In this document: one piece after another, positions 561 through 49,142 of the stretch
How positions within the stretch are numbered: position 1 is the stretch's first letter
Layout of the letters: each line of letters starts with the position of its first letter
Source: Alphaproteobacteria bacterium
GTDB lineage: Bacteria > Pseudomonadota > Alphaproteobacteria > MPNO01 > UBA830
DNA: 64,000 bases
NCBI GenBank assembly: GCA_965243135.1
Contig: OZ251539.1
Location: 1,152,001 to 1,216,000, forward strand
Direction: 5' to 3'
Notes under the pieces: model-generated
The model's database searches: none
Seen by the model: only the letters and a program-made list of their open reading frames with translations
What the model was told of the DNA's origin: nothing
Program-made: the position numbers and the translations under genes

Positions 561-643
561 CTTTGACCGGCGGCTAACCCACCACGGTCTGCCCACACGA
601 CGGAGATCGCCGACCGTCGCGTTGCGCTTCAAAGTTGACGGGA
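561..643 (+). repeat. Dispersed element copy B (~83 bp)
   Basis: CTTTGACCGGCGGCTAACCCACC...GATCGCCGACCGTCGCGTTGCGCTTCAAAGTTGA is colinear with the reverse complement of 45856-45940. Confidence 0.7.
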
Positions 644-685
644 ACTCGTCTTTCGGAAGCGGAATAGTACGCCCCCTATCAACTC

Positions 686-41206: not shown

Positions 41207-42044
41207 CCGCCCGGCCGGGTTCGCGGTCCGTCGCCCGGGGCGAAAAGATCGGGCCGGTCGCGTCGTGGCCGCGATCGCGATCGCGGCAGGCGCCTGCGCG
41301 CCGATTCCCGAAACGGGGAGCGGGACGCCGCCGCTCCCGCCGCCGTCCGGAACGGTAGAGGTTCGGGAGGGAGATTCGCTCTCCAGGATCGCCCGGCGTC
41401 ACGGCGTATCGTTGCGCGATCTGATCGAGGTCAATCGGGCATCGCCGCCCTACAGGATTTATCCCGGCCAGAAACTGCGACTGCCGGGCCGATCCGCAAC
41501 CGCCGCCGAGGATCCGTCCCGGAACGGAGGCGGGCGCACCGCGCCTCGTTCGGCTTCCGGCGTTTCGACTGTCGAAAGCGGCGCTCCGGCCGAGGAGACG
41601 CTGGCGGAACGGTCGTCGGCGAACGCGGGATCCTCGAACGGCCTGCAGCCGCCGGAGGGAGGTCTCGACTTCATGTGGCCGCTCGAGGGAAGGATTCTGG
41701 CGCGCTACGGCCGGATCGGCGACGGCCGGCGCAACGACGGCATAAACATCGCGGGCCGTCGCGGCGATCCCGTTCGCGCGGTCGCCGACGGGACCGTGAG
41801 CTATGCAGGCAACGAAATCAGAGGATTCGGCAACCTGTTGCTGGTTCGGCACGCGAACGGCTGGATTTCCGCTTACGCCCACAACGAGCGGGTGCTGGTG
41901 CGGAAGGGAGAGCGCGTAAGGAAGGGGCAGGTCGTATCGAGAGTCGGAAGCACCGGAAACGTGGGCGGTCCGCAGTTGCATTTCGAGCTGCGCCGCAACG
42001 ATCGCCTCGTCGATCCCGAGCGCCATTTGCCGAGAATGAGATAG
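41196..42044 (+). CDS. LysM/M23 peptidoglycan peptidase-like lipoprotein (NlpD-like)
   Basis: Lipobox AAGAC, LysM VREGDSLSRIA, NDGINI, AYAHN, QLHFELR; start uncertain. Confidence 0.88.
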   Translation: MIRNRPAGFAVRRPGRKDRAGRVVAAIAIAAGACAPIPETGSGTPPLPPPSGTVEVREGDSLSRIARRHGVSLRDLIEVNRASPPYRIYPGQKLRLPGRSATAAEDPSRNGGGRTAPRSASGVSTVESGAPAEETLAERSSANAGSSNGLQPPEGGLDFMWPLEGRILARYGRIGDGRRNDGINIAGRRGDPVRAVADGTVSYAGNEIRGFGNLLLVRHANGWISAYAHNERVLVRKGERVRKGQVVSRVGSTGNVGGPQLHFELRRNDRLVDPERHLPRMR

Positions 42045-42334
42045 GCGGGCGAAGGATTGCGAGAAGGCCGAACCGGGCGCCGGGGGGTAACGTCCGGCCA
42101 CGGCGGGACGGCGTTCGATCGCGGCCGGCGCCCGCTTGCCAGACTGCCGCAGCCAAAACGCCGCATCGGGCCGTTGAAGCGCCCGTTCGGGGTTTCTCAC
42201 GGCGGATCCGCAAGTCACGAAAAGTTCACGGCATCTTCAAATGCCGGCAACCTTTCTCCGTCAGTAAGCTCGCGGTCGAGGGGGATACGCTGCGCCGCCC
42301 GCCCGCGAGAGCTTTCAGCGTGACAGGAGAACCC

Positions 42335-43215
42335 ATGAAGAATGCGGAAGATCGGCTTTCGCCGTCACCAACGGACTTCGAAATTCTTGCCGAAAAGGCG
42401 CTTTCGAGACGTCGTTTCCTTCAAACCGGCGGAGCGTTCGGCGCTGCGGTGTTCGCCGCAGGCGCGATCGGGCCTGCGGCTGCCGGCCGGGCTTCGAGGC
42501 CGTAACCGCGAATACGCTTGACACGGTCACCCTTCCCGAAGGTTACAGCTGGCACGTCGTCGCGAGCCGGGGCGATCCTCTCTGGTCCGATGCGCCCCCG
42601 TTCGATCTGGCGACTCGCGGCACCGGGGCCAGCCAGGAGCGCGCGATGGGGGACAACAACGACGGCATGGAACTCTTCAACGCCGACGGGCGGCCTTGCG
42701 GTCAACAACGAATACGTGAACACCGACATCGTCCACGGCAACCGCGTTTCCAGGAAACCCGAAACCGGGAACGACATCCGGAAGAGCAAGACGGGGCACG
42801 GGGTCACCGTGGCCGAAATTTCTCGGGCGAACGGAAAATGGTCCATCGTCAAGGACTCGCCCTTCAACCGCCGCATCACGGCGGATACGAGAATGGAGAT
42901 CACCGGGCCGGCGCACGGTCACGATCTGATCAAAACCGCGGCCGACGATGCGGGCGCTACAGCTTTGGGAACCTGGAACGACTGCGGGGGCGGCCGTGGG
43001 CCCTTGGGGAACGTATCTCGCTTGCGAGAAGAACTTCAATGGATATTTCTCAAGCAGCGATCCTGATTACAAGATACCGACGTCGTCGTTGAGGCGCTAC
43101 GGCGTCAAGACCAAGGATTGGGGTTACGGCTGGGCGCGAGAAGACGAGCGTTTCGACGTTTCCCGGCATCGCAACGAGCCTGATCGCTTTGGCTACGTTG
43201 TCGAGATCGATCCCC
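42335..43215 (+). pseudogene. phoX: PhoX-family alkaline phosphatase, frameshifted and 3'-truncated
   Basis: Tat motif SRRRFL, then MGDNNDGM, VNNEY, FNRRITA, PWGTYLACE.NF and FGYVVEIDP spread over frameshifts near 42490, 42690 and 42995; C-terminal half absent. Confidence 0.85.
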
Positions 43216-43238
43216 GGCGCTCCGCTCCGGATGGTGCC

Positions 43239-43279
43239 GATTGCCGACCACCTGTGTTGCGCTTCAAGCTCGAAAGCCC
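43239..43279 (+). repeat. Dispersed element copy C (left border of the AT-rich cassette)
   Basis: GATTGCCGACCACCTGTGTTGCGCTTCAAGCTCGAAAGCCC; 23/27 nt identical to the reverse complement of copy D. Confidence 0.75.
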
Positions 43280-43295
43280 AATCCGGGCCGCGACG

Positions 43296-43893
43296 TCAAA
43301 CGTTTATCGACGCCAGCCGATCTTGATAACCTTGATCTCTGATCTGATTCGAAATGAACGGATAGTAATCGTCAAGAAAATCCAAGGTGTAATGTTCATC
43401 GCGTAAATCACGAATAACGCCTACTCTTTCCTCAATAAATTGTTCGGAATTAAGTTGCAATACTTCTATCGTTCGTTGAATTTTATCCCTAATTGGTGTG
43501 TCGATATTGTTCCCAGGGCGAATCCAGAAATCGTCAAAATGTAGAATAAACCACTTATTTTCCATGTGGAAGGGATCCACGACGCCAATTTTATTGCCTT
43601 TGAAACTATTGACCTTCTTTCGGGCCAATCGAAAATTACACCATTCGAACGCTAGGCTTGGATATTGGTCTTTGGGCCAAAAATGATCTACAGATCTATC
43701 GTTTCCGGTCATTTGCAATGTCGTATAAGCACAGCGATTTGCATAGGCATTTCCTAAATGGCCCAATGCGAGACTCCAAAACCGATTATTCTTCCACATC
43801 CTCCCTGTAGTTACGCTCAAGAAACCTCAGACCGGGTTGCCGAACTTCTTCATCAAAAGAGGGATATTCCTGTTGCGGACAAACAAAAATCAT
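43296..43893 (-). pseudogene. HNH endonuclease (PtuB-like), frameshifted near 43810
   Basis: ATG 43893 overlaps the ATPase stop (ATGA) and reads MIFVCPQQEYPSFDEEVRQPGLRFLERN before a nearby stop; the body (CAYT, SVDHFWPK, LAFEWCNFRLA..VNSFK, VVDPF) is in another frame. Confidence 0.75.
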
Positions 43894-45758
43894 ATTTTTA
43901 CGTTCCTCTTCTCGGCAAAATACTTCCAACGAGCCCAAAAGGGATCGTCGGAACCAAGATATTTCAACAATTTCTCCGTGACGTTCAATATATCCAAGCG
44001 GATATCCTGCCCCTCTTCTCGTTGTCTTTCTTGTATCGCTCTCGCTTCTTCAATGGCTTCTTCCGCGCCCCGTGATCGAGCATGTTTCAAACCGAATACC
44101 GGAGACGTCAGCCATGAGGATATTTGACCGTATTTCTGATATTCGATCTCCTTCAATTTCACGTCTCCGTTAATTTCTTCTAGATGATAAAGACGATCCT
44201 TGTCGTCGGAAAAATCTCCCTCTAAGGAGGCCAATACCATCGGAGAATGCGTCGACGCGATAATTTGGATCTGCAATTTTTCGTCAAGCAGTTTTCCTAT
44301 CGTGAGCAAGGCAGGTAGAATGGTTCTTTGCCAGCGAGGATGCAGATGGGCCTCGGTCTCGTCAATGACGATTAACATTCTGCTTGTGGGTTGCCTTCCA
44401 GTTTTTTGAGACGCAAAGACATGATTGTCCCAAGACCATATAATCAAATAGGCAAGAAGAAGGATACGTTGTACGCCAGCAGACGCAAAACCAATCGGAA
44501 CTTCTCCATAAGGATGAATTATGGTTGGCATCCATCGCGGTTCTCCCAATACACGCTTCGGATTTCCAAAACGCAAAGTGCCAAGGTCCTCGGGGGAGAG
44601 ATGCTCTAAAGCTTTTTCCAAAAGAGGGAATAGTTCCAAGTTGGTGGACAACTGCCAGTTAAGCAAATCCCTGACGAGCCCTTCGATAATTCCCGTTTTT
44701 CCATCCCATATTTCTTTAGTGGTAAGATAGTTCAGGCTTTGAGTCGCATCTATCTGAATAGAATCCCGAAATGGGTCGAATATTGAAAACGAGCCGTCGA
44801 TGCGAACATATATTGATAGATTGGAGGTCCTCTGGTCAGAATCGGGCCAAGAGTGCGTTGTCCAGTCGAATACGCTACGGCAAGTTAAATTTTTTCCGTT
44901 CGTTGGCTTGAATCGATATTGAATGCGGGGGTCGGTTTTGGTGTTTTCATTAAGGGGATACGCCGGATTGCCGGCCCAATTTCCTGTGATGGTCCACCAA
45001 GAGACATTCAACAAAAACGACTTCCCCAATCCATTGTCGCCTGCGATCAAGGTTAGTCTCTTGCCGAAATCAAGCTCGAAAGAACGCGCTGGTCCAACGT
45101 TTTTAAGGTCGAGAGAAATCAAATGGGATCCTGCGTTCTTGGGCGCAAAGGGCGGTGAAGAAAAATAGTGCGCGATATTTTGCAGGCCTGCTGGGCGTTC
45201 TCCAAAATGAGGAAATGCGGGAAGGCTATCGGAAGTATCGCAAAAAAGGGCCGTTCGTTCCTCGTCAGTAATCTTGAATTTACGCAGAAATTTTTCCGCA
45301 ACATCCTGCAAGGTGTCCTCAGGGCTCCATTTTGCGTTTTTTCCTATCCAGATTGCAATAGGCAAGATCGGAACCTGTCGCGAGCGTCCCGAATCGATGA
45401 TTTGAACTAGTTTCTCGATATAATCGGGTTCCAATGTCCAAGACGGTTCTCCTGATTTATGTCGAACGATTGAATCAAAGGTACCGCGACCGTTTGTTGA
45501 ATGAATCCCGGGCGGCGAATATTTTAACGATACCCAGTATTTTTGTCCGAAGAAAGGTTGAAAAAATTTATCAGTGTCTGGATCTAGCCGGTGATACTCC
45601 ATAAGATGTCTCTGAGTAAGGCGATTCAAATGCTCAACGGACAATTCATCCGTCGAAATATTGTTCTTGATAGCAAGAAAGGTTATGCCGAAAAAAGGCT
45701 GAACAGTTTGACGGAGGTTCTGTATTGCCCAAACTATCAAATCATGGGATAGGTACAT
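43890..45758 (-). CDS. ABC/AAA_21-type ATPase (PtuA-like) with an extra ~220-aa N-terminal domain
   Basis: Walker A GDNGLGKS, signature-like ASAGVQR, Walker B IVIDETEAHLHPRWQR, STHSP; GGAGG before ATG 45758; visibly AT-rich. Confidence 0.85.
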   Translation of the reverse strand: MYLSHDLIVWAIQNLRQTVQPFFGITFLAIKNNISTDELSVEHLNRLTQRHLMEYHRLDPDTDKFFQPFFGQKYWVSLKYSPPGIHSTNGRGTFDSIVRHKSGEPSWTLEPDYIEKLVQIIDSGRSRQVPILPIAIWIGKNAKWSPEDTLQDVAEKFLRKFKITDEERTALFCDTSDSLPAFPHFGERPAGLQNIAHYFSSPPFAPKNAGSHLISLDLKNVGPARSFELDFGKRLTLIAGDNGLGKSFLLNVSWWTITGNWAGNPAYPLNENTKTDPRIQYRFKPTNGKNLTCRSVFDWTTHSWPDSDQRTSNLSIYVRIDGSFSIFDPFRDSIQIDATQSLNYLTTKEIWDGKTGIIEGLVRDLLNWQLSTNLELFPLLEKALEHLSPEDLGTLRFGNPKRVLGEPRWMPTIIHPYGEVPIGFASAGVQRILLLAYLIIWSWDNHVFASQKTGRQPTSRMLIVIDETEAHLHPRWQRTILPALLTIGKLLDEKLQIQIIASTHSPMVLASLEGDFSDDKDRLYHLEEINGDVKLKEIEYQKYGQISSWLTSPVFGLKHARSRGAEEAIEEARAIQERQREEGQDIRLDILNVTEKLLKYLGSDDPFWARWKYFAEKRNVKI

Positions 45759-45855
45759 TGTCGCCCTCCATAGCCTCATAGTAACGACAGATCGAATTAA
45801 AATCAATGCCAGGAGCGGAAAACATTAGATAACCCATACGGTTGCGTTGTGGCAG

Positions 45856-45940
45856 CCCCATCAGTTGTGAACCGCAACGCAGGCGGTCGGTAATTTCGGT
45901 CGGCAGACAGTATCGGGATGAGTAGGCCGGCGAGTCAAGG
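45856..45940 (-). repeat. Dispersed element copy D (right border, inverted; contains TTGACT-N18-GATACT facing the ATPase)
   Basis: Reverse complement reads CCTTGACTCGCCGGCCTACTCATCCCGATACTGTCTGCCGACCGAAATTACCGACCGCCTGCGTTGCGGTTCACAACTGA. Confidence 0.75.
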
Positions 45941-46487
45941 CGCCGGGGACGTCTGCTTCCTTTGACGAGAGGGTCTTCGTCCCGGTGAGCGGGCGGGAGC
46001 TGCACCGGGCGATCGCCGCCTTCGGGTTGGAGGCTACGGACCTTGCGCCGCGGCGCCTGCACCTCCAGGTACCGGGAAGGCGGTTCTCAAGGCCGTCGCG
46101 CCGGAGCGCGGGAACCTGCCGCTCCTCCGAATTGCTGCTTCGGTGCGAAGGAAACAAGCAAGGCTGCAAGCGCATCCGACATGCTTGACGCGAGGCGCAG
46201 GACGCTGAGGCGGCCCGCGGCGCGAGCGCCTCGTGGGGCGTTCGGCATGACCCGCTCGTTCGGTCGCGCGAGACGGGCTTCCGCTTCTTTGAGCGAAGAA
46301 GCTTCAGGGCCGCGACAGGGGGGTCGGTCGAAGCCATGCCAGCGGATGACCGAATCGACTCGCGAAACCCGGAGAAAGTTCAGCGGAACGGAAAAATGCG
46401 GAAACGCGAAATAGTGCGGGATCGTCCCGAACGGAAAGCCTTCTTCGATTGAATCGGCGGAAGATTTGCGTTATCGCTTGGTTCGTC

Positions 46488-47282
46488 ATGGATCGTCTTT
46501 CCCGACTCGAAAGCCAGAGCGTCTATATCTTGCGCGAGGCCTATAACCGCTTCGATCAGGTCGCCATGCTGTGGTCGCTCGGCAAGGACTCGAACGTCAT
46601 GGTCTGGCTCGCGAAGAAGGCGTTTCACGGCCATGTGCCGTTTCCGGTCGTTCATGTCGATACCGGCAGGAAGTTCCGCGAAATGTACGAGTTCCGCGAC
46701 GCTTACGCCCGCGAATGGGATCTGAACCTCGTGGTGGGCGATTGTCCGCCGATCGAGGAAATGGATCCGGACCTGCCGCCGGCCGCCCGCTCGGCTGCGC
46801 GAAAGACGGCGGGGTTGAAGGCGTTGAACGACGAATACGGCTGGACGGCCCTTTTCGCGGGCATTCGCAGGGACGAACAGGCGGTGCGGGCGAAAGAGCG
46901 CGTCTTCAGCCCGCGGAACGGCGACGCCGAGTGGGATTATCGCGATCAGCCGCCGGAGTTCTGGGACCAGTTCAACGCGGAATTTCCGCCGGGAACGCGG
47001 GTGCGGGTCCATCCGTTGCTGCAGTGGACGGAAATCGACGTCTGGCTTTACGTGCGCCGCGAGGGCATTCCGGTCGTTTCGCTGTACTTCTCGCGCGAAG
47101 GCAAGCGCTATCGTTCGCTCGGCGACAAGGACATCACGACGCCCGTCGAGAGCGAGGCCGCGACGATCGACGAAATCATCGCCGAACTGGAGACGACCCG
47201 TCAGCCGGAGCGGATGGGGCGGGTCATGGACCACGAGGCGGAGGACGCGTTCGAGCGTTTGCGCCGGCACGGCTACATGTGA
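46488..47282 (+). CDS. cysD: Sulfate adenylyltransferase subunit 2
   Basis: LESQSVYILREA, SLGKDS, GIRRDE..RAKERVFS, RYRSLG. Confidence 0.95.
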   Translation: MDRLSRLESQSVYILREAYNRFDQVAMLWSLGKDSNVMVWLAKKAFHGHVPFPVVHVDTGRKFREMYEFRDAYAREWDLNLVVGDCPPIEEMDPDLPPAARSAARKTAGLKALNDEYGWTALFAGIRRDEQAVRAKERVFSPRNGDAEWDYRDQPPEFWDQFNAEFPPGTRVRVHPLLQWTEIDVWLYVRREGIPVVSLYFSREGKRYRSLGDKDITTPVESEAATIDEIIAELETTRQPERMGRVMDHEAEDAFERLRRHGYM

Positions 47283-47288
47283 GCGGCC

Positions 47289-49142
47289 GTGGAACGTTCG
47301 TCTATCGATCTCGTCTTCGTCGGCCATGTCGATCACGGCAAGTCCACCCTGATCGGCCGCCTGCTGCACGATACCGGCGCCGTTTCCGAAGACCGGATCG
47401 CGGCCGTGCGGCGAGCGAGCGAACGGCGCGGCCGCGGCGTCGAATGGGCGTTTTTGCTCGACGCCCTGCAGGCCGAACGGGATCAGGGGGTCACCATCGA
47501 CGTCTCGCGCATACGTTTTCGCACGGAGAGGCGCGACTGCGTAATCGTCGACGCGCCGGGCCATCGGGAGTTTCTCAGGAACATGGTCACCGGGGCGGCC
47601 GATGCGGACGCGGCGGTGCTGGTGATCGACGTCGTGGAGGGAGTGAGGGAACAAACCCGCAGGCACGCCCATTTGCTTTCGCTTATGGGGGTTTCCCAGG
47701 TCGCCGTCTTGGTTACGAAGATGGATCTCGCGGGGTTCGAAGAAAAAGCCTTCCGCCGGGTCGAACGGGACGTCCGCGACTTCCTCGAACGGCTGGGAAC
47801 GACGCCCGGCGCCGTTCTGCCGGTATCGGCCGTTTCGGGAGACAACATCGTTGCCGCGAGCACGGCGATGAGCTGGTTCGGCGGCGACTGCGTGGTCTCG
47901 TTGCTTGATCGGCTGGAACCGCGTCGCCCCCTGCGCGATTTGCCGTTGCGGCTGCCGGTGCAGGACGTGCATCGATTCGACGACCGGCGCATCGTCGTCG
48001 GGCGGATCGAGTCCGGCGTGCTGCACGCTGGCGACCGTTTGCTCTTTTCGCCGTCGGGCCACGCCGCCGGGGTCAGGTCGATCGAGGCGTGGTCGGCGCC
48101 CGCGCCGCCGATCTCCGCGGAAGCCGGCGAGTCGACCGCGATCGTTCTCGACGAGGACATCTTCGTGGAGCGGGGCGAAGTCGTCAGTCACGCCGTCGAG
48201 GCCCCGTCGCTCACCAACGTTTTCCGGGCCCGCATGTTCTGGCTCGGAAGACGCGCGTTGAAGCCAGGTTCGGAACTGATTCTGCGCATCGGAACGGCTC
48301 GGCATCGCGCGACGCTCGCGGCGATCGACCGGGTCGTCGATTCGAAGTCGCTGGAGAGCCGGGAGGCGGCCGAAATCTCGCGCGACGATTGCGCCGAAGT
48401 GGTGTTGCGCACGCAAGGGCTGGTCGCTCTGGACGAGGCCAGAAACAACCCGCGCCTCGGTCGTTTCGTATTGGTGGACGATTATCGAACCGCGGGCGGC
48501 GGCACGATCTCGATGGAAGGATATCCGGACCAGCGCGAACTCGTGACCGTGCGGTCGACGAACGTCGCGTTGACGAAGAGCCACCTCGACCGCGCCGCCC
48601 GCTGGAACCGAAACGGCCACAAGGGCGGCGTGCTCTGGCTCACGGGGTTGTCCGGCGCCGGCAAGTCGACCCTCGCGCTCGGGGTGGAGCGCCGGCTGTT
48701 CGAGGCCGGGATTCAGGTTTACGTTCTGGACGGCGACAATGTCCGGCACGGGCTCACCGCCAATCTCGGATTCTCGCCGGAGGACCGGGCGGAGAACGTG
48801 CGCCGGGTGGGCGAGGTCGCGGCGCTGTTCGCGGATGCGGGCATCGTCGTCATCGCGTCTTTCATTTCGCCATACAGATCGGATCGCGAGCGCGCCCGGT
48901 CGGCGGCGGCCAACATGTTCCACGAGGTCTATATCAGGGCGGATTTGCAAACCTGCGAGGCGCGCGACCCGAAAGGGCTGTACAAACGGGCGCGCGCCGG
49001 AAAAATCCCTGATTTCACGGGGATTTCGGCTCCGTACGAGCCGCCCGAGACGCCCGATCTCACGATCGACACGACGGCCGCCGAGGTCGATGCATGCGTC
49101 CGCGAACTGGCCGACTACGCGAGGAAGGCGTTTCGCATTTAA
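47289..49142 (+). CDS. cysNC: Bifunctional sulfate adenylyltransferase subunit 1 / APS kinase
   Basis: GHVDHGKST, DAPGH, then WLTGLSGAGKST, LDGDNVR, RDPKGLY. Confidence 0.93.
   Translation: MERSSIDLVFVGHVDHGKSTLIGRLLHDTGAVSEDRIAAVRRASERRGRGVEWAFLLDALQAERDQGVTIDVSRIRFRTERRDCVIVDAPGHREFLRNMVTGAADADAAVLVIDVVEGVREQTRRHAHLLSLMGVSQVAVLVTKMDLAGFEEKAFRRVERDVRDFLERLGTTPGAVLPVSAVSGDNIVAASTAMSWFGGDCVVSLLDRLEPRRPLRDLPLRLPVQDVHRFDDRRIVVGRIESGVLHAGDRLLFSPSGHAAGVRSIEAWSAPAPPISAEAGESTAIVLDEDIFVERGEVVSHAVEAPSLTNVFRARMFWLGRRALKPGSELILRIGTARHRATLAAIDRVVDSKSLESREAAEISRDDCAEVVLRTQGLVALDEARNNPRLGRFVLVDDYRTAGGGTISMEGYPDQRELVTVRSTNVALTKSHLDRAARWNRNGHKGGVLWLTGLSGAGKSTLALGVERRLFEAGIQVYVLDGDNVRHGLTANLGFSPEDRAENVRRVGEVAALFADAGIVVIASFISPYRSDRERARSAAANMFHEVYIRADLQTCEARDPKGLYKRARAGKIPDFTGISAPYEPPETPDLTIDTTAAEVDACVRELADYARKAFRI

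Follow-up and report, generated by a model that had tools for sequence, protein, structure and literature searches.

The window, a stretch of 64,000 nucleotides (nt) from an alphaproteobacterial genome that was searched whole (6.10 Mb, single contig), contains a low-GC island carrying a predicted Septu phage-defence pair, ptuA and ptuB. On its right the island is bordered by a short remnant of an insertion sequence (IS) of the IS30 family, the right arm, and on its left by the remnant of a phoX gene, which holds a shorter IS-like stretch, the left arm. The island (43270-45860) displays a GC content of 41-49% compared with ~65% in the flanks, is present in a single copy in the genome and comprises two open reading frames (ORFs) on the minus strand. 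An earlier sequence-only reading had described an AT-rich cassette without an adjacent transposase or integrase, and both observations are borne out. In addition to the shift in composition, no transposase, integrase or recombinase domain could be detected by Pfam in the ORFs across 38.5-49.1 kb, and the closest IS30-like transposase fragment falls outside the window.

The larger ORF (43890..45806, minus strand, 638 amino acids) encodes the predicted Septu AAA ATPase PtuA, which matches the PADLOC profile PDLC00270 over positions 1-627 of 627 (E 2.6e-189) as well as the Pfam families AAA_15, AAA_21 and AAA_23. Because the PDLC00270 profile begins at ORF residue 17, the start of ptuA was placed at the ATG at 45758, the likely initiation codon. 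The smaller ORF (43296..43820, minus strand, 174 amino acids) corresponds to the Septu HNH nuclease PtuB, with residues 8-167 aligning to positions 33-194 of 198 of the PADLOC profile PDLC00348 (E 2.7e-42). Its matches to NCBIfam PtuB and TIGR02646 stay under the cut-offs of these models, and a Pfam scan of the 174-residue protein gave no match; the likely start of ptuB is the ATG at 43801-43799. Both genes lie side by side on one strand, separated by a gap of 69-88 nt. In contigs of two sequencing runs (X4 and X7), 8 extra bases are found behind position 43809, in the interval that separates the stop of ptuA from the likely start of ptuB.

With known Septu systems, which combine a PtuA ATPase and a PtuB HNH nuclease, the pair shares the PADLOC profiles, the adjacency and the common strand; apart from sequence divergence, no difference was found. 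The search of metagenome contigs for close relatives of PtuA yielded one distant locus. Ten plasmid records were retrieved with PtuA; their identity is below 60% throughout, their coverage of the query falls short of 80%, and the nearest plasmid homologues show at most 40% identity over two thirds of PtuA. Judged by composition and gene content, the cargo is a predicted Septu pair on foreign low-GC DNA, situated in a truncated phoX gene. Between the IS tip and the start of ptuA lies an AT-rich, single-copy stretch (45759..45853, minus strand), which is taken to be the island's own upstream region; the match to the IS-end profile stops at 45856. The tight fit formerly ascribed to the two genes holds on the right side, where ~97 nt separate the likely ptuA ATG at 45758 from the right-arm tip. 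On the left side, the stop codon of the HNH gene (43296-43298) is 30 nt away from position 43266 and not 16 as had been stated.

From its homology, the right arm (45854-45950, minus strand) is deduced to be a transposase-less remnant of an IS30-family IS, that is the last ~100-105 nt of the element with a predicted outward promoter and the right terminal inverted repeat. It was matched by both profiles of the repeat family described below, with an E-value of 1.7e-17 in nhmmer (model positions 26-119) and of 8.7e-20 in Infernal. Comparison with the homologous right end in the intact IS placed the terminal inverted repeat at ~45854-45895. A promoter scan placed the -35 hexamer at 45938-45933 and the -10 hexamer at 45914-45909, both on the minus strand. 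The arrangement TTGACT-N18-GATACT, which had been pointed out before as aimed at the ATPase gene, is indeed found at 45938-45909 in this direction and matches the consensus at 9 of 12 positions. Downstream of it, no terminator-like site was detected on the minus strand from 45909 to 45758. The right arm itself is high in GC and directly adjoins the low-GC cargo.

The identity of the right arm follows from a repeat family that is dispersed over the host genome. Short-word BLAST of the island borders against the whole genome matched dozens of places. An nhmmer profile built from 11 good copies gave 137 matches at E<=1 and 103 at E<=1e-3, and a further Infernal profile, constructed from 25 copies and using sequence only, gave 128 matches at E<=0.01. 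Some copies have upstream DNA of up to 800 nt in common, which encodes an IS30-like transposase, and the similarity of the remnants to the intact IS extends from the transposase gene to the tip. With the transposase as query, tblastn found one intact gene (genome 329626-330756) and about a dozen broken pieces. The intact IS (genome ~329612-331076, ~1.47 kb) encodes a transposase with HTH_38 and rve domains, which matches NF033563 over profile positions 1-267 of 267 (E 2.2e-82; 276.8 bits, cut-off 80). About 15 nt upstream of the transposase frame, the sequence aligns to the reverse complement of the 3' end of the family. Left and right terminal repeats of the intact IS match each other in local alignment, and 7-8 copies share a conserved left end whose outer edge is sharp. 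From the shared upstream transposase, the matching terminal repeats and the conserved left end, the family is identified by homology as the right end of this IS30-family IS of ~1.47 kb. The IS30-like termini, which the sequence-only reading had noted, thus belong to an IS with an NF033563 transposase, and the many genomic copies as well as the cognate transposase elsewhere in the genome, both proposed as checks, were found.

Viewed from the inside out, the right end consists of a hairpin module, the promoter TTGACT-N18-(C/G)ATA(C/A)T, a leader of ~55-60 nt and the right terminal repeat. Across 25 aligned copies, the -35 hexamer, two positions of the -10 hexamer and the motif GTTGA near the tip are invariant or nearly so. 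Rfam searches with window positions 42000-47000 and with ten good copies gave 0 matches at E<=1, and RNAalifold yielded no consensus structure for 59 copies. Left ends account for 46 matches in the genome, most of which stand alone.

Individual copies of the family displayed further peculiarities. At copies 3562982, 2768555 and 3733207, and in diverged form at 1395030, another IS of ~1.1-1.3 kb is inserted at one fixed site inside the IS30 terminal repeat, after which the tip resumes with an apparent 3-bp duplication; this suggests that the inserted IS targets the IS30 terminal repeat. Five tandem paralogues of ~520-530 amino acids, each situated behind a diverged copy of the element, were observed at G000:C1:1280000-1289200. 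The copy at G000:C1:5353131-5353300 lies ~45 nt downstream of the 3' end of a putative tRNA, as seen by eye.

The left arm is embedded in a different context. A phoX pseudogene remnant (42367..43213, plus strand) is recognized by PF05787 on two overlapping ORFs in different frames and is cut off at about profile position 224 of 515. It displays a 73% DNA match to phoX of the same genus, ending at 43213. In tblastn, pieces of phoX appear in three frames with at least three apparent frame changes relative to the same-genus PhoX, and no other phoX pieces were found in the genome. The remnant is followed by a phoX-like tail (43214..43295, plus strand), within which the left arm forms a patch resembling the terminal inverted repeat (43239/43240-43266; profile match 43239-43277). 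Here, the protein alignment to the same-genus PhoX continues in frame to 43277, and in the nucleotide alignment phoX-like sequence flanks the patch on both sides, with one codon more and no change of frame. Between these flanks, 19-27 nt match the IS repeat and not the phoX of the relative. As a whole, the phoX remnant seems to reach to a few bases from the stop codon of ptuB.

Comparison of the two arms showed that 43240-43266 is identical to the reverse complement of 45868-45894 at 23 of 27 positions. In shuffled border zones the best inverted 27-mer match was 20 and 0 of 200 shuffles reached 23, and the inverted match noted at the outset therefore holds. Two inverted copies of ~85 bp, as claimed at the same time, are not present, since the likeness comprises 27 nt and ends abruptly, with 0/10 identities contributed by the 5 nt on each side in ungapped comparison. 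The nhmmer match of the left arm covers only the last third of the model (positions 80-118, E 0.0057), and its best single match is 26/27 to a family copy at genome 310144 (E 7e-6, or E 2.3e-4 with a longer query). By rough arithmetic, both the phoX-likeness and the IS-likeness of the left arm look non-random. Based on these alignments, the left arm is best called a mosaic patch of 27-38 nt, resembling the inverted repeat, inside the phoX remnant, which could have arisen by conversion of a short stretch or as a mosaic junction with the end of an IS.

The surroundings of the family copies were examined for low-GC cargo, defined as less than 55% GC over the 600 nt beyond the tip. Such cargo is found at 21 of 95 copies, compared with 4 of 95 on the inner side and 6.0% of 20,000 random windows (binomial p 2e-7; paired Wilcoxon p 7e-8). 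The proposed check for enrichment at the borders of low-GC DNA hence turned out positive on the promoter side. Outside the tips of left ends, low-GC DNA is likewise enriched (7/42, p 0.012). Enrichment at both ends fits an AT-rich target preference or a co-location of ISs with islands and not delivery; since left ends are enriched as well, insertion preference or co-location is favoured over delivery by the promoter-bearing end. According to our own ORF calls, the window included, the orientation of the first ORF of sizeable length within the low-GC DNA agrees with that of the promoter in 16 cases and is opposite in 3; the remaining 2 have no such ORF or one that is too short. A long ORF right after the tip is present at 20 of 95 copies compared with 21.5% of random positions (own ORF calls, no gene caller).

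Pfam matches were obtained for 10 of 27 cargo ORFs scanned and comprise a DNA methylase, two Mrr-like nucleases (one just below the cut-off), a helicase with PLD nuclease, GmrSD, an AAA_15/21-DUF3696 ATPase, an M78 peptidase, an ion channel and one ORF with weak repeat matches. PADLOC searches of 10 cargo ORFs gave matches for 4, to the candidate systems PDC-M65 and PDC-M33. As far as these domain assignments indicate, much of the low-GC cargo looks defence-related. In addition, a unit of 615 nt composed of promoter, terminal repeat and an ORF of 131 amino acids occurs at G000:C1:4192171-4192800 and 3085632-3085010 with 98.5% identity. Its borders are the left edge of the element on one side and the interior of a second, incomplete tip motif on the other, which means that a right end together with a gene has been copied as a block at least once.

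Several mobile architectures were tried for the arms and rejected. A miniature inverted-repeat transposable element (MITE) does not account for the copies, which are one-ended: their left edge scores 6.2 against their own right end or the left-end consensus, no better than shuffles (6.65 +/- 1.3; 42 copies), and on the short copies no second terminal inverted repeat was found beyond shuffle level (42 copies). Complete ISs were dismissed, as no transposase gene lies between two ends. A co-oriented transposase remnant occurs within 1.2 kb upstream of 3 of 88 copies, and no transposase-like sequence was found near either arm in the window. Four of the short copies, viewed by eye, displayed no target duplication. 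A composite transposon was rejected because the right arm is a stump of ~100 nt, the left arm a patch of 27-38 nt, and 20 of 21 cargos are one-sided. A family match at the far end of low-GC cargo is found in 1 of 21 cases, that of the window itself; no sequence is shared among the far ends of the 21 cargos, many of which abut other multi-copy ISs. For an ISEcp1-like transposition unit, no left end, transposase or surrogate right end was found. An integron-like or recombinase-site cassette was discarded in view of the missing recombinase at 38.5-49.1 kb, conserved far-end site and Rfam family. A second tip motif beyond the cargo was counted 25 times in direct and 13 times in inverted orientation, where 13.8 would be expected for either orientation and the upstream control has 22-24, and is no general rule. 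The original inference of a gene-delivering unit, be it a mini composite transposon bounded by MITEs or a recombinase-site cassette, is abandoned on these grounds, given one-ended copies, a single bracketed cargo among 21 and no empty site in the contigs of four runs. Judged by its sequence, the arm pair does not constitute a working transposon.

The reading that we favour, with a probability of roughly 0.7, is that the locus represents right-end debris of an IS30-family element with an outward promoter beside a foreign Septu island, and no gene-capture device. According to this reading, the right arm would be the last ~100 nt of the IS, the transposase gene and the left end having been lost. 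In the IS subgroup concerned, the tail of 200-330 nt after the transposase gene would carry the hairpin module and a full sigma-70-type promoter ~55-60 nt inside the right terminal repeat. In the circular intermediate, transcription from this promoter would cross the junction of the two ends and enter the transposase gene; in a chromosomal copy, it would pass the tip and enter adjacent DNA. The one intact copy, more than 100 right-end remnants and ~45 left-end remnants would be the debris of an old lineage-specific expansion, and the predicted promoter of the remnant may transcribe into ptuA-ptuB beside any promoter of the island.

A number of observations weigh against this reading. Right-end remnants are ~2.5 times as numerous as left-end remnants, which random deletion does not obviously predict, and many remnants share nearly one left edge just upstream of the -35 hexamer, which it does not obviously predict either. 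Related ISs in two other genomes are mostly full-length (19 copies, few fragments) or occur as fragments that often pair left and right ends closely. Neither genome shows an excess of single right ends, and the excess is therefore a feature of the present genome. The co-orientation of 16 of the 19 scorable cargo ORFs (two-sided binomial p ~0.004) hints at selection or a directed process and not at debris alone. Moreover, the left arm is not among the 128 Infernal matches at E<=0.01, leaving it with mixed statistics, and the TTA that flanks the intact IS on both sides is a single instance (n=1) with a chance of ~1/64.

Tentatively, and with a probability that we regard as low, the more than 100 transposase-less right ends can be viewed as lineage-specific portable promoters, kept by selection or spread by recombination at the terminal repeat, which would activate AT-rich acquired genes, many of them for phage defence. 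Acquired AT-rich genes would otherwise be poorly expressed in a genome of 65% GC. In this view, the purine-rich tip of the element would be placed just ahead of many start codons.

Less probable still is a decayed composite transposon. In this scenario, two inverted IS30-family copies would have flanked the Septu genes with their right ends inside, the unit would have entered phoX, and the IS bodies would have been deleted, leaving stumps of ~100 nt and ~30 nt. Both arm tips face the cargo, as the inside ends of inverted ISs would, and the likeness of the arm pair is beyond chance in the shuffles. Flanking IS copies are known to be lost from IS30-family composite transposons such as Tn6330. 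Excerpts of PMC6349718 provide Tn6330 with ISApl1 as an IS30-family precedent, and excerpts of PMC9333248 report non-transpositional deletions removing IS30 copies. However, phoX-like sequence resumes in frame past the left patch with the spacing kept within one codon, so that the patch stands in place of phoX sequence and is not an addition to it. Furthermore, transposase remnants near either arm, outer IS ends and a definable target duplication are all missing, and the one-sidedness of 20 of the 21 low-GC cargos also speaks against two flanking copies.

It appears quite improbable that the right end serves as a working capture-and-expression platform, in which the promoter and the terminal repeat, as docking site, would acquire genes via ISEcp1-like one-ended transposition or tip recombination. 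The asymmetry of the low-GC enrichment beyond the tip (21/95 vs 4/95), the co-oriented cargo ORFs (16/19), the defence-type cargo and the duplicated 615-nt promoter-tip-ORF unit all agree with such a platform, as does the other IS at its fixed terminal-repeat site, since at least one element thus uses the tip as a recombination target. On the other hand, left ends without an outward promoter are enriched too (7/42), the 21 cargos revealed no conserved far-end site, and the direct downstream tip motifs number 25, compared with 13.8 expected and 22-24 in the control upstream. A linked recombinase or transposase is missing, the family is absent from four same-genus genomes and no empty site was seen in the contigs of four runs. 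That the arms are alike by chance, or are untranslated regions native to the Septu operon, is hardly credible: the left arm is short and was missed by one of the two profile searches, but its best family match has an E-value of 7e-6 and no shuffle equals the arm pair, and for the right arm the idea is refuted by more than 100 copies before unrelated genes and by its high GC content beside low-GC cargo.

The IS30-family debris and the Septu island are surrounded by genes assigned in a Pfam scan of ORFs to surE, pcm, an M23/LysM peptidase, the phoX remnant, cysD and cysN/C. A high-GC spacer (45951..46448) separates the right arm from cysD; it contains two ORFs without Pfam match, and its matches elsewhere are limited to 150-nt stretches of 72-76% at two loci. 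The window harbors a further copy of the family at 563..655 on the plus strand (nhmmer E 1.7e-7, Infernal E 9.3e-10), together with two weaker partial matches at 338-375 on the plus strand (nhmmer E 4e-4, Infernal E 1.2e-4) and at 686-720 on the minus strand (nhmmer E 2.5e-4, Infernal E 5.7e-3).

Both junctions of the island are bridged by contigs from four sequencing runs at a likeness of at least 90% (43222-43692, 45713-46016 and 45750-45997), one of the runs being without cover left of 43670. Of the empty-site alleles whose search had been suggested, none was seen over 41500-48000 in the contigs of these four runs. Since run contigs bridge both junctions and none skips the island, the arrangement is common to strains ~1-2% apart. 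For two runs labelled sponge metagenome, contigs span all 30 bins of 41500-48000, mostly at 95-99+% likeness. Genomes of the same genus are ~70% identical and non-syntenic at the locus, and one alone has a phoX match.

BLAST with a 171-nt copy detected the repeat family in 0 of 40 genomes, and the exact degenerate terminal-repeat pattern was present in 0 stretches of the species collection, from which the own genome is possibly excluded. The sequence profile had no match in 4 same-genus genomes and 2 marginal matches in 21 other genomes of the taxonomic family. The closest transposases in the species collection, at 45-59% identity, come from several phyla. In six of the genomes concerned, the IS ends were defined by comparing copies within each. 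Between the transposase match and the IS end lie 210-326 nt in four of the six groups and 10-47 nt in the other two. In two relatives read to the stop codon, one of them from a short-tailed group, the transposase frame reaches or nearly reaches the IS end. By eye, promoter-like hexamers were seen in at least two long tails (L039 and L090), and the hairpin motif of the host IS in the tails of L039 and L048. An IS30 subgroup with a non-coding tail of 200-330 nt after the transposase gene appears to exist across several phyla (L039, L048, L051 and L090, all public records of metagenome-assembled genomes). In literature searches touching on the subject, no paper on this long-tailed subgroup was found.

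A comparable arrangement is that of blaNDM, which is usually found behind a truncated ISAba125. In the ISAba125 fusion promoters of aph(3')-VI, blaNDM-1 and blaADC, as described in excerpts of PMC9330008, an IS30-family right end likewise lies upstream of a foreign gene; there, resistance genes are served by a hybrid promoter, whereas the locus described here combines a phage-defence pair with a complete predicted promoter. According to portions of PMC9333248 and PMC9330008, IS30, ISAba125 and ISApl1 have in common with the host IS the DDE transposase model, terminal inverted repeats of ~26-30 nt and outward promoter elements at the right end. For IS30, the same portions describe a junction promoter on joined ends, insertion at hot spots or beside its own repeats, and frequent deletions. 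A 3-bp target duplication may be present here (TTA on both sides of one copy). In contrast to IS30 and ISAba125, for which the available part of PMC9330008 places only the -35 hexamer in the terminal repeat, the host IS would carry a full -35/-10 pair in its 200-330-nt tail, and nearly all copies in this genome, unlike other IS30-family ISs, are single ends without transposase.

The complete outward promoter near the right end of ISEcp1 (IS1380 family), which drives adjacent captured genes according to parts of PMC9330008, resembles the promoter predicted here. In ISEcp1, however, the transposase and the left end are retained and a surrogate right end past the cargo is employed, none of which was found at this locus. 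Putative mobile promoters and promoter reuse in prokaryotes, as far as presented in extracts of PMC3575422, likewise involve highly similar promoter regions before unrelated genes in one genome; by comparison with those extracts, the promoter source here is an IS end, and the copies carry its terminal repeat.

In conclusion, a previously unannotated repeat family with more than 100 genomic copies can now be named as the right end of an IS30-family IS, and what looked like a tidy cassette with inverted borders is explained by an IS30-family stump next to a standard Septu island in a dead phoX gene. Of interest for transposon biology are an IS30 subgroup in several phyla with a predicted complete outward promoter in a long tail and a single genome that retains mostly promoter-bearing ends, often co-oriented with foreign defence genes. 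If it is true that these stumps drive defence genes, this would amount to a genome-wide reuse of IS ends as promoters for acquired immunity.

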